Source of the DNA: Clostridiales bacterium
GTDB lineage: Bacteria > Bacillota > Clostridia > Christensenellales > CAG-138
Reading direction: 5' to 3'
Assembly: GCA_024698505.1 (NCBI GenBank)
Contig: JAILRE010000009.1
Location: 870 to 64,869, forward strand
DNA length: 64,000 nt
Shown: positions 4,973 through 31,962 of the stretch, piece after piece
Numbering within the stretch: the first letter of the stretch is position 1
Layout: each line of letters opens with the position of its first letter
The notes under the pieces: model-generated
What the model was told of the DNA's origin: nothing
The model's database searches: none
Seen by the model: the letters and a program-made list of their open reading frames with translations, nothing else
Made by a program: the position numbers and the translations under genes

Positions 4973-5686
4973 ATGGAAAAAACCGTACAGCTTTACGAGG
5001 GAAAGGCCAAGAAGGTCTTCGCCACCGAGAATGAGGAGCTCCTTATCGTCTCCTACAAGGACGACGCGACCGCGTTCAACGGTCTCAAGAAGGGCACCAT
5101 AGTCGGCAAGGGCGCCATCAACAACCGTATGAGCAACCTGCTCATGCAGATGCTCGAAAAGAAGGGCGTCCCCACGCATTTCGTAGAGGAGCTGAACGAC
5201 CGCGAGACGGTCGTCAAGCGCGTTTCCATAGTTCCCCTCGAGGTAATAATCCGCAATATCTCCGCGGGCTCCTTCGCCAAGCGCTACGGCGTGCCCGAGG
5301 GCATAGTTTTCGACGCTCCCACGATCGAGTTCTCCTATAAGAACGACGATCTGGGCGATCCGCTCATCAATTCGTATCACGCGCTCGCGCTGAAGCTCGC
5401 GACTCCCGAAGAGATCGAGACCATCAAGACATACGCCTTCAAGGTGAACGAGGAGCTCAGGAAGTTCTGGACGGAGTGCGGCGTCACCCTCGTCGATTTC
5501 AAGCTCGAGTTCGGCAGGCTCTCGGACGGGACGATCGTCCTCGCCGACGAGATCAGCCCCGATACCTGCAGGCTTTGGGATTCCGCCACCGGCGAAAAGC
5601 TCGATAAGGACAGGTTCCGCCGCGATATGGGCGGCGTAGAGGATGCGTACGCCGAGATAATGAGAAGGCTTCTCGAAAACGTCTGA
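4973..5686 (+). CDS. purC: Phosphoribosylaminoimidazole-succinocarboxamide (SAICAR) synthase
   Basis: [18 protein letters not shown]... is a typical PurC N-terminus; RBS GGAGG upstream. In frame within ORF 4928..5686. Confidence 0.9.
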
Positions 5687-5700
5687 CGGAGGAAAGATCC

Positions 5701-6975
5701 ATGGCAAACAGCGCGATAGTCGGCGTCAACTGGGGCGATGAGGGCAAGGGCAGGATGGTCGACCTCCTGACCGAGAACTACGATATCGTCGTCAGGTTCC
5801 AGGGCGGCGGAAACGCCGGTCACACCGTAATTAACGACAGGGGCAAGTTCGCTCTGCATCTTCTGCCTTCCGGCATATTCAGGGAGGGCGTCGTCAACAT
5901 ACTCGGAAACGGCGTTGCGCTCGATCCCGAAAACCTCTGGAAGGAAATGACGGAGGTAATGGGGAAGGGCGTTTCGATAACCCCCGACAATCTCAAAATA
6001 TCGAGCAGGGCCTCCCTTCTTATGCCCTGGCACCGCGATCTCGACGAGCTCGAGGAAAGGCGCCTCAAGGACAAGAAATTCGGCTCCACGAAGCAGGGCA
6101 TAGCCCCCTTCTATTCCGATAAATACCAGAAGAAGACCGTCCTCGCGGGCGAGCTCTTCTATCCCGAAAAGCTCAGGGCGCACCTTCGCGATCTGATGGA
6201 GTGGAAGAACCTCATACTCACCTCCGTTTACGGCGCGGAGCCCTATACGGAGGAAAGGCTCGATGAGTGGCTCTCCTCCTACTGCGAGAGGATAAAGCCC
6301 TTCATATGCGATACGGGCGAGTATCTGAAGCGCGCTCACGACGAGGGCAAGAGCATCCTCTTCGAGGCGCAGCTCGGCTCCCTCAGGGATATCGATTACG
6401 GCATACATCCCTTCACCACCTCCTCCAACACGCTGGCGGCATACGCGCCCATCGGCTCCGGCTGCCCCCAGGTCAAGATCACGAACGTCATCGGCGTAGT
6501 CAAGGCCTATTCCACCTGCGTAGGCGAGGGCCCGTTCGTCTGCGAGATGGAGGGCGAGGAGGCCGAAAGGCTCAGGCAGGAGGGCGCGGAATACGGCGCC
6601 AAGACCGGCAGGCCCAGGCGCGTCGGCCCGATAGACCTCGTCGCAACGAGGTACGGCGCCGAGATGCAGGCCGCGACCGAGATCGCCCTGACCAAGCTCG
6701 ACGTATTGAGCTACCTCGATAAGATACCCGTCTGCTCCCATTACGAGCTGGACGGAGAGATAGTCGATATCTTCCCGTTCCCCGCCGCGCTGGACGACGC
6801 GAAGCCCGTTATCGAGTATCTTGACGGCTGGAAATGCGATATTTCGAAAGTGCGCCGCTTCGAGGATCTTCCCGAAGCCGCAAGGGAATACGTGCTCTAC
6901 GTGCAGAGGGCGATAGGCTGTCCCATAACCTACGTCTCCGTCGGCCCCGAGCGCGAAAGCATAATCATCAGGTAA
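5701..6975 (+). CDS. purA: Adenylosuccinate synthase
   Basis: 424 aa with P-loop-like VGVNWGDEGKGRMVD and GGGNAGHTV. Confidence 0.95.
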   Translation: MANSAIVGVNWGDEGKGRMVDLLTENYDIVVRFQGGGNAGHTVINDRGKFALHLLPSGIFREGVVNILGNGVALDPENLWKEMTEVMGKGVSITPDNLKISSRASLLMPWHRDLDELEERRLKDKKFGSTKQGIAPFYSDKYQKKTVLAGELFYPEKLRAHLRDLMEWKNLILTSVYGAEPYTEERLDEWLSSYCERIKPFICDTGEYLKRAHDEGKSILFEAQLGSLRDIDYGIHPFTTSSNTLAAYAPIGSGCPQVKITNVIGVVKAYSTCVGEGPFVCEMEGEEAERLRQEGAEYGAKTGRPRRVGPIDLVATRYGAEMQAATEIALTKLDVLSYLDKIPVCSHYELDGEIVDIFPFPAALDDAKPVIEYLDGWKCDISKVRRFEDLPEAAREYVLYVQRAIGCPITYVSVGPERESIIIR

Positions 6976-6987
6976 GGAGGGACGAAA

Positions 6988-8412
6988 GTGGATCAGTCGA
7001 CCGCCGCATATCAATCCCCGCTCGCGTCAAGGTACGCGTCGGACTATATGCTCAAGCTCTTCTCCGCGGATACGAGGATAAGGACCTGGAGAAGGCTCTG
7101 GGTATCCCTTGCAAAGGCGGAGATGAAGCTCGGCCTTCCCATAACGCAGGAGCAGGTCAACGAGCTCGAGGCGCATATCGGGGATATCGACTTCGAATGC
7201 GCCGCCAGGCGCGAAAAGGAAGTCCGCCACGACGTCATGGCCCACGTCTATACCTACGGCAAGGCCGCTCCCTCCGCCGCGGGAATAATCCACCTCGGCG
7301 CCACCAGCTGCTACGTCACCGATAACGCGGATCTCGTCATCTACCGCGACGGCCTCCGCTATATAAGGAGCGAGCTGCTCGCCGTTATCAGGAACCTCGC
7401 CGATTTCGCGGAGGAATACAGATCCCTGCCCACTCTGGGCTACACCCACTATCAGCCCGCGCAGCTCGTCACCGTAGGCAAGCGCGCGACGCTGTGGATG
7501 CAGGATCTTGTTTCCGACGTTAACGAGATCGACTTCGCCATCCGCAACATCAGGTTCCTCGGCTGCCGCGGCACCACGGGCACCGAGGCGAGCTTCATGG
7601 ATCTTTTCGAGGGCGATTCCGCGAAAATCGACGAGATGAACCGCATGATCGCCGCCGATTTCGGCTTTGACGAGCTGTTCGCCGTCTGCGGTCAGACCTA
7701 TCCCCGCAAGACGGACAGCCGCATACTCAACGCGCTCTCCTCCGTCGCGCAGAGCCTCAGCCGCATGGCGAACGATATAAGGCTCCTTCAGCACGACAGG
7801 CAGCTCGAGGAGCCCTTCGAAAAGAACCAGATAGGCTCCTCCGCAATGGCGTATAAGCGCAATCCCATGCGCTGCGAAAGGATCTGCTCGCTCGCAAGGT
7901 ACCTCATGGCGGACGCTGCGAACGCCTCCATGACGGCCTCCGTGCAGTGGCTAGAACGCACGCTGGACGATTCCGCCAACCGCCGCATCTCCCTGCCCGA
8001 GGGCTTCCTCTGCGCGGACGCGATACTGAGGCTCGCCGCCAACGTGACCGACGGGCTCCACGTCAACGAGAAGATAGTCGAGCGCACCGTTATGGAATAC
8101 CTGCCCTTCATCGCGACCGAGAACCTCATGATGGAGGGCGTCAAGAGGGGCGGCGACCGTCAGGAGCTTCACGAGATAATCAGGACCTGCTCCATGGAGG
8201 CGACCAGGCGCATGAAGGAGGGCTATGACTGCGATCTGCTCTCCCGCCTCAAGGAAAGAAAGGAGTTCGGCCTGACCGGCGACGAGATGGACGAGCTTCT
8301 GAGGCCCGAAAAGTACATAGGACGCTGTCCCGAGCAGGTCACGGCGTTCGTGAACGCGATAAGGCCGATGCTCGAAGGCGCGGCCGAGGAAAAACAGGAT
8401 ATAGAACTGTAA
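6988..8412 (+). CDS. purB: Adenylosuccinate lyase
   Basis: 474 aa; GTG start after AAGGAGGG. Fumarate-lyase signature GSSAMAYKRNPMRCE. Confidence 0.9.
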   Translation: MDQSTAAYQSPLASRYASDYMLKLFSADTRIRTWRRLWVSLAKAEMKLGLPITQEQVNELEAHIGDIDFECAARREKEVRHDVMAHVYTYGKAAPSAAGIIHLGATSCYVTDNADLVIYRDGLRYIRSELLAVIRNLADFAEEYRSLPTLGYTHYQPAQLVTVGKRATLWMQDLVSDVNEIDFAIRNIRFLGCRGTTGTEASFMDLFEGDSAKIDEMNRMIAADFGFDELFAVCGQTYPRKTDSRILNALSSVAQSLSRMANDIRLLQHDRQLEEPFEKNQIGSSAMAYKRNPMRCERICSLARYLMADAANASMTASVQWLERTLDDSANRRISLPEGFLCADAILRLAANVTDGLHVNEKIVERTVMEYLPFIATENLMMEGVKRGGDRQELHEIIRTCSMEATRRMKEGYDCDLLSRLKERKEFGLTGDEMDELLRPEKYIGRCPEQVTAFVNAIRPMLEGAAEEKQDIEL

Positions 8413-20585: not shown

Positions 20586-20972
20586 GTGAACGCTGTGAAG
20601 AAGATATCCCTTTCCGACGGCGAATGGAAGCTCATGAATCTCCTGTGGGACAGCGAGCCCAGGACGATAGGCGAAATGGTGACCGCTCTGAAGCACGATA
20701 CCGGCTGGACGAAGGCGACGATCAACATTATGCTTACCCGCCTTGCCGAAAAGGAGGCCGTCCGCATAGAGACGGGGGGCAGGGCAAAGCTGTTCTATCC
20801 CATCGTTAAGAGGGACGAGGCCGTCGTGCAGGAGGCGAAGGACACCCTCGGCAAGATAAGGCCCTCCGGCCTCGGGCTGCTCGTCAGCACCATGACTAAG
20901 GAATCGAAGCTCTCCGACAGCGAGATCGACGAGCTTCTTGCCATTCTGAAGGAGGCGAAGGAACGTGACTGA
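20586..20972 (+). CDS. BlaI/MecI/CopY-family transcriptional repressor
   Basis: 128 aa. Winged-helix N-terminus LSDGEWKLMNLLWDSEPRTIGEMV..TKATINIMLTRLAEKEAV. An alternative GTG start lies at 20595. Confidence 0.85.
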   Translation: MNAVKKISLSDGEWKLMNLLWDSEPRTIGEMVTALKHDTGWTKATINIMLTRLAEKEAVRIETGGRAKLFYPIVKRDEAVVQEAKDTLGKIRPSGLGLLVSTMTKESKLSDSEIDELLAILKEAKERD

Positions 20973-23064
20973 TCTTATTTGGGTCATATCTTCATCGGTT
21001 TTGATAATCGCCGTAACGGTCATCCGCGCCGCGCTGGGCAAAAGGATGAGCGCGGGGCTGAGGTATGCGCTTTGGGGCATAGTGCTCGTAAGGCTGCTCA
21101 TACCCGGGATGATATTCTCAAGCCCCGTCAGCATCGAGAACGCCGCCGACAGGACGGAGATAGTGAGGGACATGGAGGCCGTGCGAGAGGTCAGCGCCAT
21201 CGCGCAGGCCGAGGACGGCTCCGTCGTGGGCCTTTTGAAGAGGCCCGCGCAGCAGACCTCCGCGAACGAGGGCGAGACAAAGCCCGCGCCTGCAGTCTCC
21301 GCAAAGCCGGAGCCGGCAGTTTCCGCAAAGCCCGCGCCCGCCGCTTCCGAAAAGCCGGATCCCAAACAGGACGAGGCGCAGCAGACCGCCGCTCCCGCCG
21401 GGGAGAAGGTCAGGACCGCGGTGATACTTTCCGAAGCCACGCCCGAGCGCTTCACGAAAATGCAGAAGACTCTGAAGCTCCGCGACGTGCTGAACGTAAT
21501 CTGGTACACGGGCATGGGCCTTGCAGCCGTCTACTTCATCGCGGCGAACCTGCGCTTCTATCTCAGGCTCAGAAAGAGGCGCGAGCGCATAGGGGAAGCC
21601 CCCGGCTGCCGCGTATACAGCGTGGAGGGGCTCACCTCCTCCTGCCTGTTCCTCAATTCGATATACGTCTCGAAGGAGACCGCAAACGACGCGGAGAAGC
21701 TCCGTTACGTGCTGGCGCATGAGCGCGCGCATTTCCGCCATGGGGACAGCGTATTCGCCCTGCTCCGCTCGGCGGCGATAGTGCTCCACTGGTACAATCC
21801 CCTCGTCTGGCTGGCGGCCTTCCTTTCAAGGCATGACAGCGAGCTCTTTGCCGACGCTGGAGCTGTTTCCGCGGTCGGCGAGGACGAAAGGGAGCGCTAC
21901 GGCAAGACGCTGATCGAGCTTTCGGCGCGTTCCTCCGTGTATGCTCCCATAGCCTGCGCCGCGACCATGATGACGAGCGGCAAGGCGGAGCTCAAGAGCC
22001 GCATAACCCATATCGCGAAGCGCCGCAGGATGGGCCTTGCAATAGCCGCGGCCGTGCTCGTGCTGGCGCTCGCCGCAGTCGGCTGCTCCTTCATAGGCGG
22101 CCAAAAGAAGCCCGACGAAAACGGACCCAAGACCACCGAGGCGCCGACGGAGGAGCCTACCGCAACACCGACCGAGGTTCCCACCGAGGAGCCGACGGCC
22201 GAGCCGACGGAGGCGTCTGCTCCGACGGAAGCGCCTGCTCCGACGGAGGAGCCTACTCCGGAGCCTACTGCGACTCCCGAGCCCACTCCCGATCCCATCC
22301 CGACGGGCGTGCCGTATCTTCGCGTGACGTGTACTACCGTTTATGAGGACGGCAGCCTGACGCGTATTACCGGAGGCGTTTTGGATGCGTACGATAGCGT
22401 GCTCTATAACTATTCGGAGGATCATTACGACGATCCGGATACGATCTTCGAGTACAACGAGCGCGGGGACCTCGTCAGGGAGCAGCGGCGCGGAGCTTTT
22501 TACGAATACGTATGGGAGTATAACGAAGCCGGGCGTCCCACGAAGCAATCGGTCTATTTCGGCTACGACGGAAAAGAGGCCGACCTCATGAACTACTTGT
22601 GCTATGATTACGATGAGGATGGAAAGCTCGTCGCGATAAGGTCGTATTTCTACGACGACAGACTGGTGGGCACCACGGAATTCGATGAATTCGAGAGGCC
22701 GAAAAGGAACTACAAAGACGATCCGGAGCAGCCCTCAAGCGAACTCTTATATGAATACGACGAGCACGGAGAGCAGACGATTCGTACCCAGAAGTATTAC
22801 CGCGACGGTGAACTCGTGCGTTGGCAGACCGATCGGAATGAGATGACTTACGATGAGAACGGCCGCGTTACCGAGAGAATCAGTTACAGCAGCGAATCTT
22901 CATACGGCAATGAGATCGAGGAGCATCCGACGGGAAAACGCGTCCGTGAGTACGATGAAGCCGGCAGGCTGATAAAGGAATATTGCTACGAATACATAGA
23001 CGGTGAGTTTGTGCTGTTCTCGACAACGATCAACGAATTCGAGATCATTTACGAAGGCGAATAA
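20965..23064 (+). CDS. BlaR1/M56-family membrane metalloprotease sensor with a C-terminal YD-repeat ectodomain
   Basis: GTG start overlaps the blaI-like stop by 8 nt. HEXXH in LAHERAHFRHGD. A TM segment then a PTEEPT linker. At least 6 YD-type repeats (EYNERGDLV, EYNEAGRPT, YDYDEDGKLV, YEYDEHGEQT, TYDENGRVT, EYDEAGRLI). Confidence 0.8.
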   Translation: MTDLIWVISSSVLIIAVTVIRAALGKRMSAGLRYALWGIVLVRLLIPGMIFSSPVSIENAADRTEIVRDMEAVREVSAIAQAEDGSVVGLLKRPAQQTSANEGETKPAPAVSAKPEPAVSAKPAPAASEKPDPKQDEAQQTAAPAGEKVRTAVILSEATPERFTKMQKTLKLRDVLNVIWYTGMGLAAVYFIAANLRFYLRLRKRRERIGEAPGCRVYSVEGLTSSCLFLNSIYVSKETANDAEKLRYVLAHERAHFRHGDSVFALLRSAAIVLHWYNPLVWLAAFLSRHDSELFADAGAVSAVGEDERERYGKTLIELSARSSVYAPIACAATMMTSGKAELKSRITHIAKRRRMGLAIAAAVLVLALAAVGCSFIGGQKKPDENGPKTTEAPTEEPTATPTEVPTEEPTAEPTEASAPTEAPAPTEEPTPEPTATPEPTPDPIPTGVPYLRVTCTTVYEDGSLTRITGGVLDAYDSVLYNYSEDHYDDPDTIFEYNERGDLVREQRRGAFYEYVWEYNEAGRPTKQSVYFGYDGKEADLMNYLCYDYDEDGKLVAIRSYFYDDRLVGTTEFDEFERPKRNYKDDPEQPSSELLYEYDEHGEQTIRTQKYYRDGELVRWQTDRNEMTYDENGRVTERISYSSESSYGNEIEEHPTGKRVREYDEAGRLIKEYCYEYIDGEFVLFSTTINEFEIIYEGE

Positions 23065-23475: not shown

Positions 23476-23517
23476 TCCCGCCCTCCGATTTGTAAGGCGC
23501 AAAACAAAAAAGGCGGC
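23476..23517. repeat. 42-bp direct repeat, copy 1
   Basis: TCCCGCCCTCCGATTTGTAAGGCGCAAAACAAAAAAGGCGGC, identical to 23701-23742. Confidence 0.95.
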
Positions 23518-23700
23518 GGTTCTACGTCCGCCCCACCGCTCAGCCTCCCTTCCTCCGGAGGGGAGGCGTCGAACCGACGCAGTCGGAGAGACGGAGGGGC
23601 AGCTCTTCCTGCAATCAGCTCTTTGCACGATACCCCTCAGTCGGCATACGCCGACAGCTCCCCTGCAGAGCAAGGGAGCCTGTTCGGACGCACACCCGCG
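23518..23700. repeat. 183-bp hairpin-rich insert belonging to the intergenic repeat family
   Basis: Contains GTCGAACCGACGCAGTCGGAGAGACGGAGGGGC, a near copy of 34605-34640, plus the palindrome CCTCCGGAGG and a GTCGGC..GCCGAC hairpin. Confidence 0.7.
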
Positions 23701-23742
23701 TCCCGCCCTCCGATTTGTAAGGCGCAAAACAAAAAAGGCGGC
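23701..23742. repeat. 42-bp direct repeat, copy 2
   Basis: Identical to 23476-23517. Its 3' end forms the left arm of the terminator hairpin at 23737-23751. Confidence 0.95.
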
Positions 23743-23757
23743 AAAGCCGCCTTTTTT
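23731..23757. terminator. Bidirectional terminator shared by the convergent genes
   Basis: AAAAAAGGCGGC-AAA-GCCGCCTTTTTT. Confidence 0.8.
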
Positions 23758-23766
23758 CGTTAGCTC

Positions 23767-25035
23767 TTACTGTTTCTTAGCCTTTTTGGCTCCGGCCTTC
23801 TTCTCGAGCACGGAGAGCTTGAGGCCGGTGTTGTAGAAGTCCTTGGTGGTGCAGCCCGCTCGGCCGCCGCCCGCGCAGGCGCAGGCGCACGCGCAGGCGC
23901 AGGAATGAGCGCAGGCGCAGGAGGAATGCGCGCAGCCACCGCTCCTCGTGGAGCCGCCGCCGGAGGAACGCGGCCTCGAGACGGGGATCGTCACGACGTG
24001 CACGCGCATATAGGTGTTGGGATCGGGACCGTAATGGTAGGTGCCGTCGGTCTTCTTGTCCTTCACCTCTTCGGGGACCTGCTCCTCGGTAACGGTCTCC
24101 TTGCTCTTGATGAAGCTCGTTCCGCAGTACGCGCAGTTATCCTTGCCCTCGGGCCTCGGCGCGCCGCAGTTCGGGCAGGACTCGTGATAGACTATCTTCT
24201 CCCTCGTGATCTTCTTTTCGGAAGAGGCGCCCGAGAAGCCCGAGCCGCCCTTGAACACGGCCTGGAACGCGCTCTTGATCGCGCTTATCACGCCGACCAC
24301 GATCATGAAGAACACGACCGCGGAGATGCCCGTTGCAAAGTCGCAGCCGAGATCCTGACAGCTGGAACCGTCGTCATAATCGCCGCCGCCGCCAAAGCCC
24401 TTTTCTATCGTCTTGGAGCTGTCGAAGGCGTACGCGTCGTTTTCGTACGTGACGCCGACCGTGTAGGTATCGTTCGCGGCGAGCGCGGTCTCCCAGGTGT
24501 AATAGCCGTCCTCCTTCAGAAGGCAGGCGGGGGTAACGGATTTGACGAGCCTGCTGTCCCACTTGATTATCAGCTTGTCGACCGAGCAGTCGAACCAACC
24601 GGGGGTGAATTCATAATAGGTCTCGCCCTCGGTGAAGTAGTTCATCTGGTACATATAGTCCTGCACCACTTCGAAATCGAAGCTGACTACCTCGCCCTCG
24701 TAATACTTCCTGTCAAGGTCGACCCTCGCGTAGGTGCCGCTCTTGGAGTAATAGGTCACGCTGTCGACCGTATCGGAAAGGCCGCGCATGGAGAGATAGT
24801 TGGAATTCGGTATGCCGACCTTTACCCATTCGAGCGGGCCCTCGCTGGAGCTGTCAAGCACCTTCCAATCGAAATGATAGGTGAGTGTCAGCGTGCCGTC
24901 CTCGTTCACGTCAACGGTGATGCGGTATTCCAGTATCTCGTCGAGAGGGCCGGCCGCCTTTGCCTTGGGAGCGACCCCAATGAGTACCGTCAGAAGCAGC
25001 GCGAGCGCCGCGATAATAACAACAGCTTTTTTCAT
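23767..25035 (-). CDS. DUF2207-N-like membrane protein with a cytoplasmic zinc ribbon and a C-terminal (Cys-Ala)n tail
   Basis: RBS AAGGAGGG then ATG at 25035 (MKKAVVIIAALALLL). Beta-rich ectodomain EYRITVDVNEDGTLTLTYHFDWKV, TM segment ISAVVFFMIVVGVISAI, CPNCG..CAYCG, and tail GGCAHSSCACAHSCACACACACAGGGRAGC. Confidence 0.75.
   Translation of the reverse strand: MKKAVVIIAALALLLTVLIGVAPKAKAAGPLDEILEYRITVDVNEDGTLTLTYHFDWKVLDSSSEGPLEWVKVGIPNSNYLSMRGLSDTVDSVTYYSKSGTYARVDLDRKYYEGEVVSFDFEVVQDYMYQMNYFTEGETYYEFTPGWFDCSVDKLIIKWDSRLVKSVTPACLLKEDGYYTWETALAANDTYTVGVTYENDAYAFDSSKTIEKGFGGGGDYDDGSSCQDLGCDFATGISAVVFFMIVVGVISAIKSAFQAVFKGGSGFSGASSEKKITREKIVYHESCPNCGAPRPEGKDNCAYCGTSFIKSKETVTEEQVPEEVKDKKTDGTYHYGPDPNTYMRVHVVTIPVSRPRSSGGGSTRSGGCAHSSCACAHSCACACACACAGGGRAGCTTKDFYNTGLKLSVLEKKAGAKKAKKQ
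23873..23937. repeat. GCGCAG/GCGCAC hexamer tandem tract encoding the Cys-Ala repeats
   Basis: GCGCAGGCGCAGGCGCACGCGCAGGCGCAGG...GCGCAGGCGCAGG, read on the minus strand as (CA)n. Confidence 0.9.
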
Positions 25036-25049
25036 GCCGGTCGCCCTCC

Positions 25050-26423
25050 TTATCGATCCCTGTGTATGCGCAGGGGACATTCGCCGCTCATAAGAGCGGA
25101 GTTTTCGCGTATCCTCGAACACGCCTCGCCGTTCCACACGGCTTCCCAATCATCCTCGAGCATGCTGCCGAGCGCATTCCCCGAAAGCCAGCTCTGGCAG
25201 GGGACTATGCTCCCTCCGGGCGTGACCGCCATATTGGAGAGGCACGCGCCGCAGGTGGGCGTGCTTATGCCGAGCTCGCCGCAGAGCGCGGCGTCCACCC
25301 AGCCGGGGGAGGTGAAGCTTATCTCCATCTCGTTTGCGTAGCAGTAATCGACGGCTTCCCTCAGTATGGCCGTTATCTCTTCCTTCGTCAGCTGCAGCCT
25401 CTCGGAGGGATCCTTCGCGGCGTTGCCCGTCGTGATGAGGCCGGAGCAGGTGACGTAGGTCACTCCGAGCCCGCGCAGGAATTTCAGCGTGGAGAGGTAA
25501 TCGCGGTTCAGCGTGCAGAGCGGCGTGTTCACCGAAAGGCTGAGGCCCGCGGCAAGCGCGTTTTTGATGCCGTTCACGGTGTCGCCGTATTTCTCCGCGC
25601 CGACGAGCGCGTTATGCACCTTCTCATCCGAGGAATAGAACGTGACCTGCACGCTGTCGAGCGAAGCCTCGCGGAGCTTTAAGACGTAATCCTCCGTCAG
25701 CAGTATGCCGTTCGTGTTGAGCCTCGTTATGAACCATTTCGCGTAGTCGATAAGCTCGGGAAGATCGGGCCTGATCGTCGGCTCGCCGCCCGTGAAGGTG
25801 ACCTGCGTAACGCCGATCTCACGGCATTTGTCGATTATCCTCTTCCAATCGTCGGTCGAAAGCTCGGCCTCCTCGGCGTGCTGCTGACCGGCGGCGTAGC
25901 AGTGGACGCATTTCTGATTGCAGTGCCATACGCCGTCCTTCGTCATGGCGCTCACCATGAGATCCATCCTGTGCGGAGCGCGCATGAAGGGCGCGTACTC
26001 GCCCAGGGTGACGTATTCGATATCCTCGGTCACCTTCTCGCCCCGCGCGACCTGCTTGAAGGTGTTCATTATCGTGTAGATATCCTCGCGCAGACGCTTC
26101 CTGCCGAGAAGGGGATAGACCTTCCGCACGGCCTTTTCGGTGCTGCGCATTATGGTCTCGGTCTCCTCCTCGCCGACGGGGCGGCCCGCGTACTTATTCA
26201 CCTCGTTTATGAACTCGATCAGGAGTATGCTCCATGAACGGTTGACGGGTATCACGTCCTGACCGTTGATTATCGCGCAGGACGCCGCGATCTCGTTCCC
26301 CTGAACGACGGGCGGAACGAGATGTATCCTCACTACGCCGGGCCCCTCGGGGTTGAGCGTGGTGTGGTAGACCTCGTTGAAATGCTCCGCCGCGTAGCGC
26401 AGTTCTCGCTTCGATGTTTTCAT
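25050..26423 (-). CDS. Radical SAM enzyme with a C-terminal SPASM/twitch-like Cys cluster and a ~150-aa N-terminal extension
   Basis: 457 aa. CxxxCxxC in HCNQKCVHCYAAG, GGEP motif FTGGEPT, and C-terminal cysteines in VTCSGL.., TCGACLSNMAVTPGGSIVPCQSW, EACSRI, GECP. Confidence 0.85.
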   Translation of the reverse strand: MKTSKRELRYAAEHFNEVYHTTLNPEGPGVVRIHLVPPVVQGNEIAASCAIINGQDVIPVNRSWSILLIEFINEVNKYAGRPVGEEETETIMRSTEKAVRKVYPLLGRKRLREDIYTIMNTFKQVARGEKVTEDIEYVTLGEYAPFMRAPHRMDLMVSAMTKDGVWHCNQKCVHCYAAGQQHAEEAELSTDDWKRIIDKCREIGVTQVTFTGGEPTIRPDLPELIDYAKWFITRLNTNGILLTEDYVLKLREASLDSVQVTFYSSDEKVHNALVGAEKYGDTVNGIKNALAAGLSLSVNTPLCTLNRDYLSTLKFLRGLGVTYVTCSGLITTGNAAKDPSERLQLTKEEITAILREAVDYCYANEMEISFTSPGWVDAALCGELGISTPTCGACLSNMAVTPGGSIVPCQSWLSGNALGSMLEDDWEAVWNGEACSRIRENSALMSGECPLRIHRDR

Positions 26424-26466
26424 TTATCTACCTCCTGTGTGTTTTTCGGGAGTTTGGGTTCTTATT

Positions 26467-27177
26467 TCATTCGGCTTCGGCCTTCTTTTTTTCGCGCCTT
26501 TTCACGAACAGCAGAAGGAATACGGCGTATAAGGCCGCGGCCGCCGCGTCGATGATCGCGGTGACGTAGGGGCGGCCCTCCCAAAGCAGGGAGCCGAGCG
26601 CCCCGGCAAGCCCTATCACGCAGGCCGCCAGGAGCAGGGCCGTCAGGTTCTTTTTGGAAAGCAGTTTTTTAAGCGGCACGTTCGGAAAGATCGCCTTCTC
26701 GGCCGCGAGTATCAGCGCGAAGACGGCGGCTGCCCCGATAAGGAGCTTTATTAAAGCCCCGACGAAGGGTATGCCGAGGGCGCCCGTCAGCGCGGCGACG
26801 CCCCAGACTATGCCGGACCCGACCGCCCAAACGGGCAGCAGCACGAGCAGCCTTGCAATAAGGGGCATGGAGCGGAGCCTGTCCCCGAGCTTGGCCCGAA
26901 GACCGCGCTTTCTTTCGGAATCGTCGGGCGCGGGTATCAGCTCCGGCTCGGCGGAGGGAAGCTCCATCGTCTGCACGACGGCGGCGGGGGAGGCGAGCTG
27001 CTCGGGGGTGAGCGCCTCCTTCTGAGGGGCGAACATGCCGCCGAAGAAAAGCGAAGCCGCAAGCGCCGTTCCCGCGGCAGCCTGCTTCGCCTTTTTGCCC
27101 AGCTTTTTAATATCGGGCTTCTTCAGTTTATGCTCGTTTTCCATAGGGGGAATACCGCCCTTTCCGTCTGAACGCAT
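26467..27177 (-). CDS. Hypothetical polytopic membrane protein with a Lys-rich N-terminus (start uncertain)
   Basis: Minus-strand promoter TTGTTT-17-TGGTATAAT (-10 at 27188-27193) lies 10 nt upstream of ATG 27177. Alternative starts are ATG 27144 and TTG 27216. About 5 hydrophobic helices; stop is 43 nt before the rSAM start. Confidence 0.5.
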   Translation of the reverse strand: MRSDGKGGIPPMENEHKLKKPDIKKLGKKAKQAAAGTALAASLFFGGMFAPQKEALTPEQLASPAAVVQTMELPSAEPELIPAPDDSERKRGLRAKLGDRLRSMPLIARLLVLLPVWAVGSGIVWGVAALTGALGIPFVGALIKLLIGAAAVFALILAAEKAIFPNVPLKKLLSKKNLTALLLAACVIGLAGALGSLLWEGRPYVTAIIDAAAAALYAVFLLLFVKRREKKKAEAE

Positions 27178-27262
27178 ATCCTTATGGATTATACCATATA
27201 TTTTCGGCAAAAACAATTCCCCGGGCGAAGTATTTCACGGGTACAAATCTTCGTTATTCGGC

Positions 27263-27534: not shown

Positions 27535-27942
27535 ATGGAACAGAAGATCACATCCACCATCCGTCTCCGCATGAGCGCGCAGGACGCGCATTACGGCGGA
27601 AATCTTGTCGACGGCGCGCATATGCTCGCCCTCTTCGGCGACGTCGCGACCGAGCTCCTCATCAAGCTTGACGGCGACGAGGGCCTCTTCAAGGCTTATG
27701 ATATGGTCGAGTTCATCGCTCCCGTTTTCGCGGGCGACTATATCGAGGCCTACGGCGAGATCACCCATATCGGCAACACCTCCCGCAAGATGGTCTTCGA
27801 GGCCAGGAAGGTGATAGCTCCCCGTCCCGACATCAACGATTCCGCTTGCGACGTTCTGGCTGAGCCGATCGTCGTCTGCAGGGCCTCCGGCACCTGCGTC
27901 GTCCCCAAGGACAAGAAGCGCGGCAATTACGAGAACCTGTAA
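27535..27942 (+). CDS. kal: 3-aminobutyryl-CoA ammonia-lyase (hotdog fold)
   Basis: RBS CGGAGGT then ATG at 27535. 135 aa ([28 protein letters not shown]). Position in the kce-kdd-kam operon. Confidence 0.8.
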
Positions 27943-27955
27943 GAGGAGATAACAA

Positions 27956-28783
27956 ATGGAAAAGCTGATCATCACGGCCGCCATCTGCGGAGCAGAGGTC
28001 ACGAAGGCCAATAATCCCGCCGTTCCCTACACCGTTGAGGAGATGGTGAACGAGGCAAGGTCCGCCTACAACGCGGGCGCGGCCATAATCCACGTCCACG
28101 TCCGTGAGGACGACGGCACCCCCACCCAGAGCCGCGAGCGCTTCCGCGTCGTGATGGACGCGATAAGGCGCGAGCTGCCCGACGTCATAATGATCCCCTC
28201 CACCGGCGGCGCCACCGGCATGAGCCCGGAGGAGCGTCTCCAGCCCACGGAGCTCTTCCCCGAAATGGCCACCCTTGACTGCGGCACCTGCAATTTCGGC
28301 GACGAGATATTCGACAACACGATGCCCACCATGCGCGCCTTCGGCAAGCGCATGATCGAGAACGGCATAAAGCCCGAGTACGAGTGCTTCGAGATGGGCC
28401 ATATCGACACCATCCTCGACATGGCGAGGAAGGGCGAAGTCCCCGGCGATCCCATGCAGTTCAACTTCGTTCTCGGCGTCAAGGGCTGCACCCCCGCTAC
28501 GGTGCAGAACCTCGTCTGGATGGTCAACGCCATCCCCAAGAACGCCACCTGGACCTCCACCGGCGTAGGCCGCGCCGCTTTCACTCTCGCCGCTCCCACC
28601 ATCGTTATGGGCGGCAACGTCAGAGTCGGCTTCGAGGATAACATCTACCTCTCCAGGGGCGTGAAGGCCGCCTCCAACGGCGAGCTCGTTGAGAAGGTCG
28701 TAAGGCTCTCCAGGGAGCTCGGCCGCGAGATCGCTTCCCCCGAGGAGGCAAGGCGCATACTCTCCCTCAAGCCCAGGATGTAA
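27956..28783 (+). CDS. kce: 3-keto-5-aminohexanoate cleavage enzyme (BKACE/DUF849)
   Basis: 275 aa; MEKLIITAAICGAEVTKANNPAVPYTVEEMV is a typical BKACE N-terminus. Confidence 0.9.
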   Translation: MEKLIITAAICGAEVTKANNPAVPYTVEEMVNEARSAYNAGAAIIHVHVREDDGTPTQSRERFRVVMDAIRRELPDVIMIPSTGGATGMSPEERLQPTELFPEMATLDCGTCNFGDEIFDNTMPTMRAFGKRMIENGIKPEYECFEMGHIDTILDMARKGEVPGDPMQFNFVLGVKGCTPATVQNLVWMVNAIPKNATWTSTGVGRAAFTLAAPTIVMGGNVRVGFEDNIYLSRGVKAASNGELVEKVVRLSRELGREIASPEEARRILSLKPRM

Positions 28784-28878
28784 GGCTTTCAGAGGGCGGA
28801 CGAAACAGTTACCAACCCCCTTTTTCAGGGCGGTAAACCAAATAGAATAAAAAAACATTAACACGGAGGAATAATACA

Positions 28879-29919
28879 ATGGCACTCAAAGGCAACAAGT
28901 ACGGTACTCACAGGGTCATCGAGCCCCAGGGCGTTCTCACTCAGGCCGCCTGGAAGATCGACAACGACATGACCAAGCGTTACTCCAACGAGATCATCTG
29001 CGACGTTATCTCCCTCAACATCGACTCCGCTTCCTTCACTCAGATCGAGGAAGCCTGCGAGGGCGACGAGAAGAGGATCGGCGAGATGATAATGGGCATC
29101 GTCGCCGAGCGCGGCAAGCAGCAGAACCCCGTTACCGGTTCCGGCGGCATGTTCATCGGCAAGGTCGCCTACATCGGCGAGGATCTCAAGGACCGCGACC
29201 TGAAGGTCGGCGACAAGATCGCTTCCCTCGTTTCCCTGTCCCTCACTCCCCTCAAGATCGACAAGATCCTTGCCATCCACAAGGATATCGACCGCGTTGA
29301 CATCATCGGTCAGGCCGTCCTCTTCGAGAGCGGCATCTACGCGAAGCTGCCCGACGACATGAGCGAGCCTCTGGCCCTCGCGGCCCTCGACGTAGCGGGC
29401 GCTCCCGCTCAGGCGCGCAAGCTCCCCAAGGAGGGCGACAGCGTCCTCATTCTCGGCGCAAACGGCAAGTCCGGCGTTCTCTGCGGCTATGAGGCCATGA
29501 AGAAGGTCGGCCCCAAGGGCAACGTCGTCGGCGTCGTAAGGAACCCGAAGCAGGTCCCCGCTCTCATGGAGCTGGGCGTTTACAATAAGGTCATCGTCGC
29601 CTCCGCGACGGAGCCCATCGCCGTTCTCAACGCCGCTCTCGAGGCGAACGACGGCAAGGAGTACGATATCTCCATCAGCTGCGTCAACGTCGAGTCCTGC
29701 GAGATGAGCGCGATCCTCCCCGTCCGTGACGACGGTATCGTCTACTTCTTCTCCATGGCCACCTCCTTCACCAAGGCCGCTCTCGGCGCAGAAGGCATCG
29801 GCAAGGACGTCACCATGATCGTCGGCAACGGCTACACCAAGGATCATGCCGAGATCACCCTCAACGTTCTCCGCGAGAACGAGAAGCTCCGCAAGCTCTT
29901 CGACGAGAAGTACTGCTGA
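28879..29919 (+). CDS. kdd: L-erythro-3,5-diaminohexanoate dehydrogenase
   Basis: 346 aa (MALKGNKYGTHRVIEPQGVLTQAAWKIDND). Rossmann-like LILGANGKSG. Operon context. Confidence 0.85.
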   Translation: MALKGNKYGTHRVIEPQGVLTQAAWKIDNDMTKRYSNEIICDVISLNIDSASFTQIEEACEGDEKRIGEMIMGIVAERGKQQNPVTGSGGMFIGKVAYIGEDLKDRDLKVGDKIASLVSLSLTPLKIDKILAIHKDIDRVDIIGQAVLFESGIYAKLPDDMSEPLALAALDVAGAPAQARKLPKEGDSVLILGANGKSGVLCGYEAMKKVGPKGNVVGVVRNPKQVPALMELGVYNKVIVASATEPIAVLNAALEANDGKEYDISISCVNVESCEMSAILPVRDDGIVYFFSMATSFTKAALGAEGIGKDVTMIVGNGYTKDHAEITLNVLRENEKLRKLFDEKYC

Positions 29920-29930
29920 TAACGTATATC

Positions 29931-29977
29931 GCCGCCCCGCGCAGTCCGATAAAGCGTCCGCGCGGGAGCGGCTTTTT
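29931..29977 (+). terminator. Internal terminator-like hairpin between kdd and the lipoprotein gene
   Basis: GCCGCCCCGCGC / GCGCGGGAGCGGC stem with one bulge, followed by TTTTT. Confidence 0.55.
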
Positions 29978-30013
29978 CGCAAAAACCTTTCCCCTAAAAC
30001 GGAGACCGACCGT

Positions 30014-30652
30014 ATGAAAAAAACAATTTCTCTTCTGCTCCTCGTCCTGCTGGCAGTATCGCTCTTTGCGGGCTGCAAGAAGGATCCCTACGTTCCCGAA
30101 GGCCCCACGATAGTCGATTACGGCGAGGTCGAGTACGTCCCCTACAGTGATGAAACCGCCCTCTCCTTCAGCTATCTCGACTGCTTCGCAAGGGCAACGG
30201 AGGACGGCCCCTTCGTAGCCAACACCCCGGATAAAAAGGGCGTGCTGACCTACGATTTCTACGATTCCTTCAAGGAATACGAGGGCACGCAGCAGTATTA
30301 CCAGATCCCGAGCCGCACCTTTGCCGAGATTGCCGCCTTCTCCGACAGCGAGGCGTACGAGTACCTCGAGGCCGCCCTCGGCATGGTAGAGGCCATGAAC
30401 GCCGATTACCACGTCGACGATTTCATCTTCGAAAAGGATGACAAGCTCATCACCCTCGGCATGGAGGTCACTGCGACCTACCGCACGACGGGGGAGATAC
30501 AGAAGATGTTCATCAGGAAGTTCATCGTCGAGAACGAGCGCGTTTACACTGTCCAGTACGTCGTCCCCGCGAGCTGCATTGAAAAATACGGCCCCTGCGT
30601 GAAGGGCATGATACTGGATCTTGCCAACGCTCTTGAGGGCTCGGCCGACTAA
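30014..30652 (+). CDS. Hypothetical lipoprotein embedded in the lysine-fermentation operon
   Basis: MKKTISLLLLVLLAVSLFAGC lipobox. 212 aa with no recognisable domain. Confidence 0.7.
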   Translation: MKKTISLLLLVLLAVSLFAGCKKDPYVPEGPTIVDYGEVEYVPYSDETALSFSYLDCFARATEDGPFVANTPDKKGVLTYDFYDSFKEYEGTQQYYQIPSRTFAEIAAFSDSEAYEYLEAALGMVEAMNADYHVDDFIFEKDDKLITLGMEVTATYRTTGEIQKMFIRKFIVENERVYTVQYVVPASCIEKYGPCVKGMILDLANALEGSAD

Positions 30653-30684
30653 GAGCATTCAATAATTCAGAAAGGATCAAGAAA

Positions 30685-31962
30685 ATGGTCACGATCAATC
30701 AGAGCCGCGCATACGGGCTTTTCAAGGATATCCCCGACGAGCTGTGGAACGACTGGCAGTGGCAGGTCGCCAACCGCATTGAGACCCTTGAGGATCTCAA
30801 AAAGTACGTCAAGCTCACCCCCGAAGAGGAGGACGGCGTCAGGAAGTGCCTCGGCACGCTCCGCATGGCGATCACGCCCTATTATCTCTCCCTCATCAAT
30901 CCGGACGATCCCTTCGATCCCGTAAGGCGTCAGGCGATCCCCACCGCGGCGGAGCTCTATCAGGCCCCCGAGGATCAGCTCGATCCTCTGCATGAGGACA
31001 CCGATTCGCCCGTTCCCGGCCTCACCCACAGGTATCCCGACCGCGTACTCTTTCTCGTTACCGACCAGTGCTCCATGTACTGCCGTCACTGCACGAGGAG
31101 GCGCTTCGCCGGCCAGACCGACACCGCCGTTCCCGACTGCCAGATCGAGGGCTGCCTCGATTACATCAGGAAGCATCCCGAGGTGCGCGACGTACTGCTC
31201 TCCGGCGGCGATGTGCTGATGCTCTCCGACGAGAAGCTCGAGTACATCATCTCCGAGCTGCGCAAGATCCCCCACGTGGAGATCGTAAGGCTCGGCTCCA
31301 GGACTCCCGTCGTCTGCCCCCAGAGGATCACTCCCGCCCTCTGCGCCATGCTGAGGAAGTATCATCCCATCTGGCTGAACACCCACTTCAACCATCCCAA
31401 TGAGATCACCGAGGAATCCAAGCGCGCCTGCGCCATGCTGGCCGACGCCGGCATCCCCCTCGGCAACCAGTCGGTGCTGCTCCACGGCGTGAACGACTGC
31501 GTCCACGTTATGAAGAAGCTCGTCCAGGCGCTCGTCTACATCAGGGTAAGGCCGTATTACATCTACGTCTGCGACCTGTCGATGGGCCTCACGCATTTCC
31601 GCACCCCCGTTTCCAAGGGCATCGAGATAATCGAGGGCCTCAGGGGGCATACCTCCGGCTACGCCGTGCCCACTTTCGTGGTCGACGCTCCCGGCGGCGG
31701 CGGCAAGACGCCCGTCATGCCCAACTACGTCATCTCCCAGACCCCGAGGAAGACCATACTCAGGAATTTCGAGGGCGTCATCACCACCTATACCGAGCCC
31801 GAGAACTACGTTGAGGACTGCCACTGCGAGGAATGCCGCAAGGCGAAGGAGCAGAGGTTCGAGCCCGTCGGCGTAGCGGGCCTCGAGCAGGGCCGCAGGG
31901 ACGGCGCGATCTCCCTTGAGCCCAAGGGCCTCGCAAGGCTGGAGCGCGGCAGAAAGCACTGA
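30685..31962 (+). CDS. kamA: L-lysine 2,3-aminomutase (radical SAM, PLP)
   Basis: 425 aa with CSMYCRHCTRRR (CxxxCxxC) and a typical KamA N-terminus. Confidence 0.95.
   Translation: MVTINQSRAYGLFKDIPDELWNDWQWQVANRIETLEDLKKYVKLTPEEEDGVRKCLGTLRMAITPYYLSLINPDDPFDPVRRQAIPTAAELYQAPEDQLDPLHEDTDSPVPGLTHRYPDRVLFLVTDQCSMYCRHCTRRRFAGQTDTAVPDCQIEGCLDYIRKHPEVRDVLLSGGDVLMLSDEKLEYIISELRKIPHVEIVRLGSRTPVVCPQRITPALCAMLRKYHPIWLNTHFNHPNEITEESKRACAMLADAGIPLGNQSVLLHGVNDCVHVMKKLVQALVYIRVRPYYIYVCDLSMGLTHFRTPVSKGIEIIEGLRGHTSGYAVPTFVVDAPGGGGKTPVMPNYVISQTPRKTILRNFEGVITTYTEPENYVEDCHCEECRKAKEQRFEPVGVAGLEQGRRDGAISLEPKGLARLERGRKH

Follow-up and report, generated by a model that had tools for sequence, protein, structure and literature searches.

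A 64,000-nucleotide (nt) stretch of the genome of a Clostridiales bacterium (lineage CAG-138; GenBank assembly GCA_024698505.1, contig JAILRE010000009.1, positions 870 to 64,869 of the forward strand), here called the window, carries a pair of adjacent genes. One encodes a radical S-adenosylmethionine (SAM) enzyme, the other a membrane protein (protein C, from ORF C) with a Cys-Ala-rich tail close to its C-terminus. Together with a third open reading frame (ORF), they lie in the same direction on the minus strand in the order ORF A, enzyme, ORF C, with intergenic gaps of 43 nt and then 14 nt. An earlier note, made from the sequence alone, had described this layout, the 457-amino-acid (aa) enzyme, the 422-aa membrane protein, the motifs CNQKCVHC and CPNC...CAYC and the tail CAHSSCACAHSCACACACACAGGGRAGC. 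All of these were confirmed (Table 1), the tail sequence being at aa 368-395 of the window protein. At their maximal extents, ORF C spans 23767-25149 and ORF A 26467-27216; the MKK start at 25035 gives protein C its 422 aa. Public annotations call the members of the pair only "radical SAM protein", "zinc ribbon domain-containing protein" or "hypothetical protein".

Table 1 Features of the enzyme and tail-protein locus, in window positions.
Feature	Position	Strand	Description
ORF A	26467..27177 (ATG at 27177)	-	Lys-rich polytopic membrane protein; adjoins the module
Radical SAM enzyme gene	25050..26423	-	457 aa; NCBI MCR5808192.1
N-terminal domain of enzyme, aa 1-130	26034..26423	-	One helix, four strands, three helices; candidate recognition domain, RRE-like
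CX3CX2C cluster motif, C168/C172/C175 (CNQKCVHC)	25899..25922	-	Invariant in 37/37 divergent homologues
C-terminal auxiliary-cluster region of enzyme (partial SPASM, twitch-like)	25077..25253	-	C391, C394, C409, C435 and C449 conserved in 34-37 of 37 homologues
14-nt spacer with ribosome-binding site GGAGGG	25036..25049	-	Between the enzyme and tail-protein genes
Tail-bearing membrane protein gene (ORF C)	23767..25035	-	422 aa; NCBI MCR5808191.1
Extracytoplasmic beta-sandwich, aa 32-198	24442..24942	-	pLDDT >90; conserved FTPGWF motif
Transmembrane helix, aa 234-263	24247..24336	-	Modelled helix; hydrophobic stretch in the alignment
Cytoplasmic beta domain, aa 272-351	23983..24222	-	Zinc ribbon C287/C290/C301/C304 and conserved strand PNTYxRVHVVxVP; pLDDT 80-95
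Cys-Ala tail core CAHSSCACAHSCACACACACAGGGRAGCTTKDFY, aa 368-401	23833..23934	-	Nine Cys; predicted disordered, pLDDT <50
C-terminal basic helix NTGLKLSVLEKKAGAKKAKKQ	23770..23832	-	After the core; modelled helix 407-421
Intrinsic terminator hairpin AAAAAAGGCGGC/GCCGCCTTTTTT	23724..23764	-	Directly 3' of the gene C stop codon

The enzyme and membrane protein genes are one transcriptional unit, as seen from their adjacency, the ribosome-binding site that links them and the terminator that closes the unit. In the spacer (GGAGGGCGACCGGC), the ribosome-binding site lies 8 nt upstream of the tail-protein ATG, and the enzyme gene has an AGGAGG preceding its own ATG. The terminator, right after the stop codon of gene C, consists of a perfect hairpin (AAAAAAGGCGGC-TTT-GCCGCCTTTTTT) with T residues behind it, and the transcription unit therefore terminates there. 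The same region holds a perfect 42-nt direct repeat (23476-23517 and 23701-23742, copies 225 nt apart). Its second copy provides one arm of the terminator hairpin, and its first copy precedes a terminator-like site at 23515-23532 (minus strand). At other loci, the tail-protein gene begins at most ~30 nt from the enzyme gene or overlaps it. The earlier note had counted ORF A as a member of the operon. A three-gene operon of this kind was ruled out: ORF A matched no family in Pfam or NCBIfam, and no counterpart of it stood beside the pair at any other locus that was fetched.

Association of the two genes was assessed from both sides. At loci selected by the enzyme, the tail protein adjoined it in 12 out of 12, at 48-72% enzyme identity. 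Nine enzyme loci, at 48-69% identity, were found by scanning one genome per species; at 9/9, a protein C homologue came next on the same strand, and the partners ended in ...CACACA(G/S)(G/S)GRAGC[ST]xKDF[YF].... Three more enzyme-selected contexts had the same pair arrangement with different flanking genes in each, one of them being a metagenome-assembled genome (MAG) labelled Atopobiaceae. For the reverse view, a degenerate DNA pattern for CACACAGGGRAGC recovered 120 metagenomic stretches with 121 tails, 29 of which were unassessable because of contig ends. The enzyme was adjacent to 88 of the 92 assessable tail genes, directly upstream on the same strand for 87 and directly downstream for one (locus L044). 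The earlier note had named two observations that would speak against a link, namely orthologous enzymes that usually lack this neighbour and a tail that is common away from the enzyme. Neither was found, and the tail search itself returned only 183 clusters.

When all ORFs from ~130 loci were clustered, the enzyme and the tail protein were the only genes that recurred everywhere. No third gene was common to all clades in this clustering, and neither a leader protease nor an exporter was conserved nearby. No small precursor ORF, which the earlier note had not seen either, was conserved across loci. The pair persisted, even at an enzyme identity of only 41%, while its flanking genes differed between clades. 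In a neighbour-joining tree built from the enzymes, the tail and architecture classes were monophyletic, so the two genes diversified together. The pair family comprises thousands of homologue clusters in Lachnospiraceae, Oscillospiraceae and other gut and rumen anaerobes; a cultured carrier is Lachnospiraceae bacterium YSD2013 (SCX08433.1). A scan of viral contigs with the enzyme alignment was uninformative, yielding one true relative, whose contig ends right after the gene, and two distant radical SAM genes. A literature search that included the literal motif strings found no description of the motif or of the pairing, and the strings matched only nucleotide sequences.

Several loci had unusual arrangements. 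At L044, the order was inverted, with the tail protein (5392-6342) before the enzyme (6335-7684), the genes overlapping on the same strand and still adjacent. L033 held tandem tail-bearing proteins (2-616 and 620-1891), and one enzyme may thus serve more than one tail protein. Tail ORFs fused to unrelated N-termini were seen twice, with an HsdS-like piece in L062 (oriented 1040-2236) and with a DnaJ N-terminus in P0334. Both are probably rearrangements or assembly chimeras arising via the Gly-rich/GC-rich repeat region. The Atopobiaceae-labelled MAG (Actinomycetota; L130/L131, 8001-10741) had an intact pair with an enzyme ~70% identical to the Clostridia version, which points to horizontal transfer or mis-binning; the sequence of its partner protein suggests extra hydrophobic segments past the first transmembrane (TM) helix. 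A 685-aa ATPase (AAA and AAA_lid_6 domains; L047 8652-10706; also L073, L018, L058, L068, L092, L109, L120 and others) was considered as a third partner gene. It lies 3' of the tail gene in 27 loci, starting at or right after the tail-gene stop. The candidate was rejected as a general partner, being confined to one clade: all 27 loci belong to that in which the tail protein has a DPDDWFWY segment instead of the zinc ribbon. In that clade, it could act as a third component.

The tail is the most conserved part of protein C. Its core motif of 15 residues is almost invariant, and the rest of the protein is only ~50% identical among homologues, far below the conservation of the tail. The consensus of 349 distinct tails was CACACACAGGGRAGC[ST]xKDFY. 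In these, the CACACACAGGGRAGC core was 94-100% conserved per position and GRAGC 100%. The part that follows had S in 73% and T in 24%, a variable x, K in 99%, D in 86%, F in 87% and Y in 96%. The number of Cys-x units ranged from 2 to 8 per tail, with 4-11 Cys in the last 45 residues up to GRAGC. All of the 120 best protein C homologues ended in the tail motif. A search with the tail only, against 1.84 billion representative proteins, gave 183 clusters at E<=0.001, and the match was at or near the C-terminus in all of the 150 best of them. Short "tail-only" proteins of 59-140 aa were considered as free precursor peptides and set aside; many look like fragments, frameshifts or assembly chimeras.

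At the DNA level, the core repeats a GC-rich hexamer (TGCGCC), in numbers that differ among homologues. The 13-aa core was encoded by 90 different DNA sequences and its Arg used all six codons, so selection acts on the peptide. This synonymous variation rules out a DNA-level repeat artefact. Because an invariant Gly and Arg stand in the tail beside a radical SAM gene, the glycyl radical fingerprint R-[IVT]-[CSA]-G-[FWY] was also checked; it was not matched by G-R-A-G-C-[ST]. A C-terminal sorting signal was ruled out, there being no TM segment after the motif. Within the zinc-ribbon clade, an LKLxQLE pattern was conserved in the region of the C-terminal helix. In all clades, a hydrophobic strand, (T/S)-x-V-x-V or RVHVV/VHTIHV/RYVFV, recurred 5-40 residues before the Cys-rich region, and it was present even without a zinc ribbon (window aa 341-351; L038; P0259, P0273). 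It is a candidate leader-like recognition strand.

The enzyme matched the Pfam family Radical_SAM (PF04055) with 81.8 bits against a cut-off of 29.5, and ~167 aa lie upstream of its cluster motif. Besides the three cluster Cys, those at positions 303, 326, 391, 394, 409, 435 and 449 were conserved in 37 homologues down to 41% identity. The earlier note had assigned the C-terminal part to SPASM. In support of this, PF13186 was above its cut-off (26.3 bits vs 21.5, aa 391-443) and the first SPASM element was present (C394-x9-G404-x4-C409), but the Cys motif was incomplete. The complete motif, CX9-15GX4C ... CX2CX5CX3C ... C, binds two auxiliary clusters. The sequence of the C-terminal domain fits the name twitch-like or partial SPASM best. 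Of the 25 best NCBIfam models, none passed its cut-off. The best was archaeal MoaA with 106.8 bits vs 325, which speaks against the further possibility raised in the earlier note that the enzyme falls into a known cofactor or housekeeping family. Among these families, MoaA, PqqE, MftC, NirJ, AhbC/D, HxsC, TrsS and others, the enzyme was far below the NCBIfam cut-offs. The best full-length alignments included models of the PqqE, MftC and NirJ type, with PqqE/MftC at 79-92 bits and cut-offs of 265-381.

The AlphaFold model of the enzyme had a mean predicted local distance difference test (pLDDT) score of 86.8. Its top full-length Foldseek matches were SkfB, CteB and SuiB, followed by anSME and MoaA, with the lowest root-mean-square deviation (rmsd, 4.3-4.8 A) for anSME. 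The closest solved structures by sequence covered the core only, and the best match by sequence in the PDB was the lipid-modifying GDGT-MAS. In the N-terminal domain, strands were modelled at 19-23, 31-36, 48-52 and 56-60 and helices at 62-78, 85-100 and 108-126. This strand-then-three-helix order is that of the peptide-recognition domains known as recognition elements (RRE) of RiPPs, peptides that the ribosome makes and that are then modified post-translationally. The RRE fold has a three-stranded sheet with three helices after it and takes up the peptide as an additional strand. The motif HTTLDPxGPGVVRIHLIPP...NGxDIxPLNxSWAILL was conserved in 28 homologues at 26-71% identity. The domain matched no Pfam family, and a search of PDB sequences with its profile found no RRE-containing chain. 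The full-length alignments to CteB and SuiB span 453-480 columns. The proposal of the earlier note that this extension is a recognition element is thus consistent with its four strands and three helices and with the fold match to the leader-binding CteB and SuiB, but it found no echo in a PqqD/RRE sequence signal.

Protein C was modelled by AlphaFold as a signal/TM helix (aa 2-21), the beta-sandwich, a TM helix, a small beta/zinc domain, a disordered stretch (aa 357-403) and a terminal basic helix. A cleavable signal peptide together with a single TM helix would put the tail on the cytoplasmic side of the membrane. Foldseek matches of the beta-sandwich were ribophorin I (OST1) and the N-domain of M1 aminopeptidases. 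The ectodomain (FTPGWF, of which GWF is kept), the membrane anchor and the tail were common to all clades. The zinc ribbon noted earlier is present in the window protein, and the Cys of CPNC...CAYC were invariant in 39 homologues, but it is clade-specific: it is limited to the clade nearest the window (enzyme identity at least ~54%), and in other clades its place is taken by a DPDDWFWY...VHTIHVAR segment or by no more than a short linker. The ribbon was therefore ruled out as a defining part of the module. At least 2851 homologue clusters of protein C were found, with no precomputed Pfam domain among those listed, and NCBIfam gave no useful matches for either protein C or ORF A.

The label "DUF2207-like", given to protein C in the earlier note, holds as a weak similarity only. 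The N-terminal match of the window protein to DUF2207 (PF09972) had 19.7 bits, below the Pfam cut-off of 24.4, and 12 of the 39 homologues had matches at E<0.01, the best at 2.9e-5; this sequence similarity points to no more than a distant relation. Like protein C, DUF2207 proteins have an N-terminal extracytoplasmic beta-sandwich, weakly similar to its own, followed by a membrane anchor. DUF2207 proteins have a Gly/Ser-rich C-terminal region, and so does the protein C family. We know of no DUF2207 protein that is described with an invariant Cys-Ala motif and a linked radical SAM gene.

As had been proposed in the earlier note, we infer, with moderate confidence, that the enzyme takes the tail as its substrate and modifies it covalently, and the proposal is supported by the results above. 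The pair is probably a dedicated two-gene module of enzyme and substrate, in which the target is the tail of a whole membrane protein and not a small peptide. The substrate role fits a tail that is Cys-rich, disordered, C-terminal and predicted to be cytoplasmic, where an oxygen-sensitive radical SAM enzyme could reach it. A role of the enzyme as maturase is supported by its intact CX3CX2C motif, the seven further conserved Cys, the peptide-maturase-like fold, the extra N-terminal domain with its RRE-like topology and the lack of a match to any cofactor or housekeeping family among the 25 best NCBIfam models.

The following course of events would be consistent with this reading. The membrane protein would insert with the beta-sandwich outside the cell and the C-terminal region in the cytoplasm. 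The N-terminal sheet-plus-three-helix domain of the enzyme would dock on a conserved cytoplasmic element of its partner. Candidates for this element are the hydrophobic strand that precedes the Ser/Gly/His linker and the helix KDFY...LKL that follows the core. The disordered CACACACAGGGRAGC core would enter the active site. There, SAM would be cleaved reductively, and the resulting 5'-deoxyadenosyl radical would take a hydrogen from the tail. The likeliest product, in analogy to SkfB, CteB, AlbA and QhpD, would be at least one thioether cross-link from Cys sulfur to carbon, formed with the help of an auxiliary iron-sulfur cluster. Thioether cross-links as the specific modification are less certain than the role of the tail as substrate. 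No protease or exporter is conserved nearby, and the membrane protein would therefore keep the product, a cytoplasmic module that is rigid, cross-linked or metal/redox-active. A more far-reaching version is possible but doubtful. In it, a full-length receptor-like membrane protein would carry, on its cytoplasmic tail, a poly-thioether ladder or a protein-derived cofactor with metal or redox activity. Such chemistry would be previously unrecognised and would make the pair a membrane-tethered signalling or electron/metal-handling module, widespread in gut and rumen Clostridia, in which RiPP-type maturation has been repurposed for a resident protein.

Several observations weigh against a substrate role of the tail. 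The presumed substrate gene is downstream of the enzyme gene and tightly coupled to it, which suggests a 1:1 stoichiometry, typical of a stable complex more than of a multi-turnover enzyme. A loop that binds a metal or a cluster could also account for the invariance of the Ala and Gly positions. In the enzyme, the canonical SPASM sequence CX2CX5CX3C was absent from the 37 homologues, only C435 and C449 following the first element, and a PqqD/RRE (PF05402) signal was absent from the full protein and from 28 N-terminal domains at E values up to 10. Four assessable tail genes had no adjacent enzyme (the second copy in L033, L062, L064 and L113). At least two of them look rearranged or truncated. 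The L033 gene comes second in a tandem pair that the contig end interrupts, that in L062 carries the HsdS-like N-terminal piece, and that in L113 lacks its N-terminal part.

In a rival explanation, the tail is not modified by the enzyme. The Cys ladder would ligate an iron-sulfur cluster or metal and bind the enzyme permanently, as a docking or cluster-sharing partner. The tail would then hold the enzyme at the membrane or control its activity according to what the outer domain senses, and the true substrate would be something else. Coupled or overlapping genes with the tail gene second suggest equimolar production, Ala and Gly as invariant as Cys are expected of a precise binding loop, and nine alternating Cys would line one face of a beta strand. 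The missing second half of the SPASM motif is in line with this, as is the best PDB sequence match, to the core of a lipid-modifying enzyme. We nevertheless consider such a partner role unlikely: the whole-fold matches are peptide maturases and not lipid or small-molecule enzymes, the tail is predicted to be disordered in the manner of a core peptide, and no other candidate substrate gene is conserved nearby. Still less probable, in our judgement, is that the tail is modified in a different way, possibly at a single site, with the Cys-Ala repeat serving mainly for recognition. The Cys of GRAGC could be converted to formylglycine. Other options are epimerisation and, as in PqqE/PqqA and MftC/MftA, a carbon-carbon cross-link from which a protein-derived cofactor is made. 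Full conservation of GRAGC next to a variable number of Cys-Ala units would suit a single site, and anSME ranks high among the fold matches, at the lowest rmsd. The tail ...GGCAHSSCACAHSCACACACACAGGGRAGCTTKDFY..., read from the sequence, does not contain the sulfatase target motif C/S-x-P/A-x-R. For a cofactor, the full-length alignments to PqqE-, MftC- and NirJ-type models are the best in NCBIfam, but all are far below the cut-offs, and the tail is without Tyr/Glu or a Val-Tyr terminus as in PqqA or MftA.

Synteny inherited without any functional link, with the tail a low-complexity, slippage-prone repeat, can effectively be excluded. The variable number of TGCGCC hexamers and the vertical co-diversification of both genes would agree with it. 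Against it, the neighbours change in every clade while the pair is kept to 41% enzyme identity, the two genes are still adjacent when their order is inverted (L044), and the amino acids of the tail are invariant while synonymous sites vary freely, including all six Arg codons.

The other genes around the pair in the window (a BlaI/BlaR1-like pair, aconitase, Kce and KamA) were not conserved with it. At 20586-23064 (plus strand), a BlaI-type repressor is followed by a 699-aa BlaR1/M56 peptidase, whose C-terminal half has a Pro/Thr/Glu-rich linker and RHS-type repeats in place of a penicillin-binding sensor domain. On the other side, a lysine-fermentation set lies at 27535-31962 (plus strand): a 4HBT thioesterase, a BKACE/Kce cleavage enzyme, a 346-aa ORF with no Pfam match, possibly a diaminohexanoate dehydrogenase, and a lysine 2,3-aminomutase. 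The last is a second radical SAM enzyme in the window, unrelated to that of the module.

Radical SAM enzymes of this class have mostly been studied as makers of secreted peptide natural products or cofactors. The enzyme family described here appears dedicated to the tail of one membrane protein, and the pair is a widespread, sharply defined module in gut and rumen anaerobes. A modification of the tail, if it takes place, would bring resident membrane proteins within the chemistry of radical SAM maturases, give genome mining a new recognisable substrate motif and offer a way into the study of an envelope protein that is conserved in abundant gut bacteria and entirely uncharacterised.

By analogy, the pair would work like a RiPP maturase and its precursor and would resemble QhpD/QhpC and anSME/sulfatase, yet it departs from each of these in defining traits. 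Sactipeptide and ranthipeptide systems have a short precursor beside the maturase, and here the only conserved neighbour is a membrane protein of 300-440 aa. The closest likeness in layout is to SCIFF/CteB and SkfA/SkfB, where the gene of a Cys-rich substrate stands beside that of a radical SAM enzyme that binds the peptide with its N-terminal domain and has an auxiliary-cluster domain at its C-terminus; here, peptide binding by the enzyme and the tail as substrate are candidate roles. CteB and SkfB are also among the best structural matches of the enzyme. The SCIFF system is widespread in Clostridia, and so is the pair, which is not sporadic. In contrast to SCIFF and SkfA, the candidate substrate is the C-terminus of a membrane protein of 300-440 aa and not a 45-aa peptide with an N-terminal leader, the pair has no conserved protease or exporter nearby, and the SPASM motif is incomplete. 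No SCIFF-maturase/CteB model was among the 25 best NCBIfam models for the enzyme.

PqqE/PqqA and MftC/MftA share with the pair a strongly conserved short core beside a dedicated SPASM-type enzyme. Their cores are in free small peptides, with Glu/Tyr or Val-Tyr and not Cys-Ala repeats. The likeness to anSME is that of a radical SAM/SPASM enzyme acting on Cys in a full-length protein, in its case a sulfatase, and of a close fold match. Unlike the enzyme described here, anSME has the full seven-Cys SPASM motif; its target motif is absent from the tail, and to our knowledge it is without an N-terminal recognition domain. QhpD, a SPASM-type radical SAM enzyme, installs Cys thioether cross-links in QhpC, the small subunit of quinohemoprotein amine dehydrogenase, which then works within a larger assembly and is not an exported natural product. 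QhpC is soluble and periplasmic, has a quinone cofactor and is linked from Cys to Asp or Glu. In the pair, the target would be a cytoplasmic tail, its core has no Asp or Glu, and no sequence-level relation of the enzyme to QhpD was detected among the 25 best NCBIfam models.

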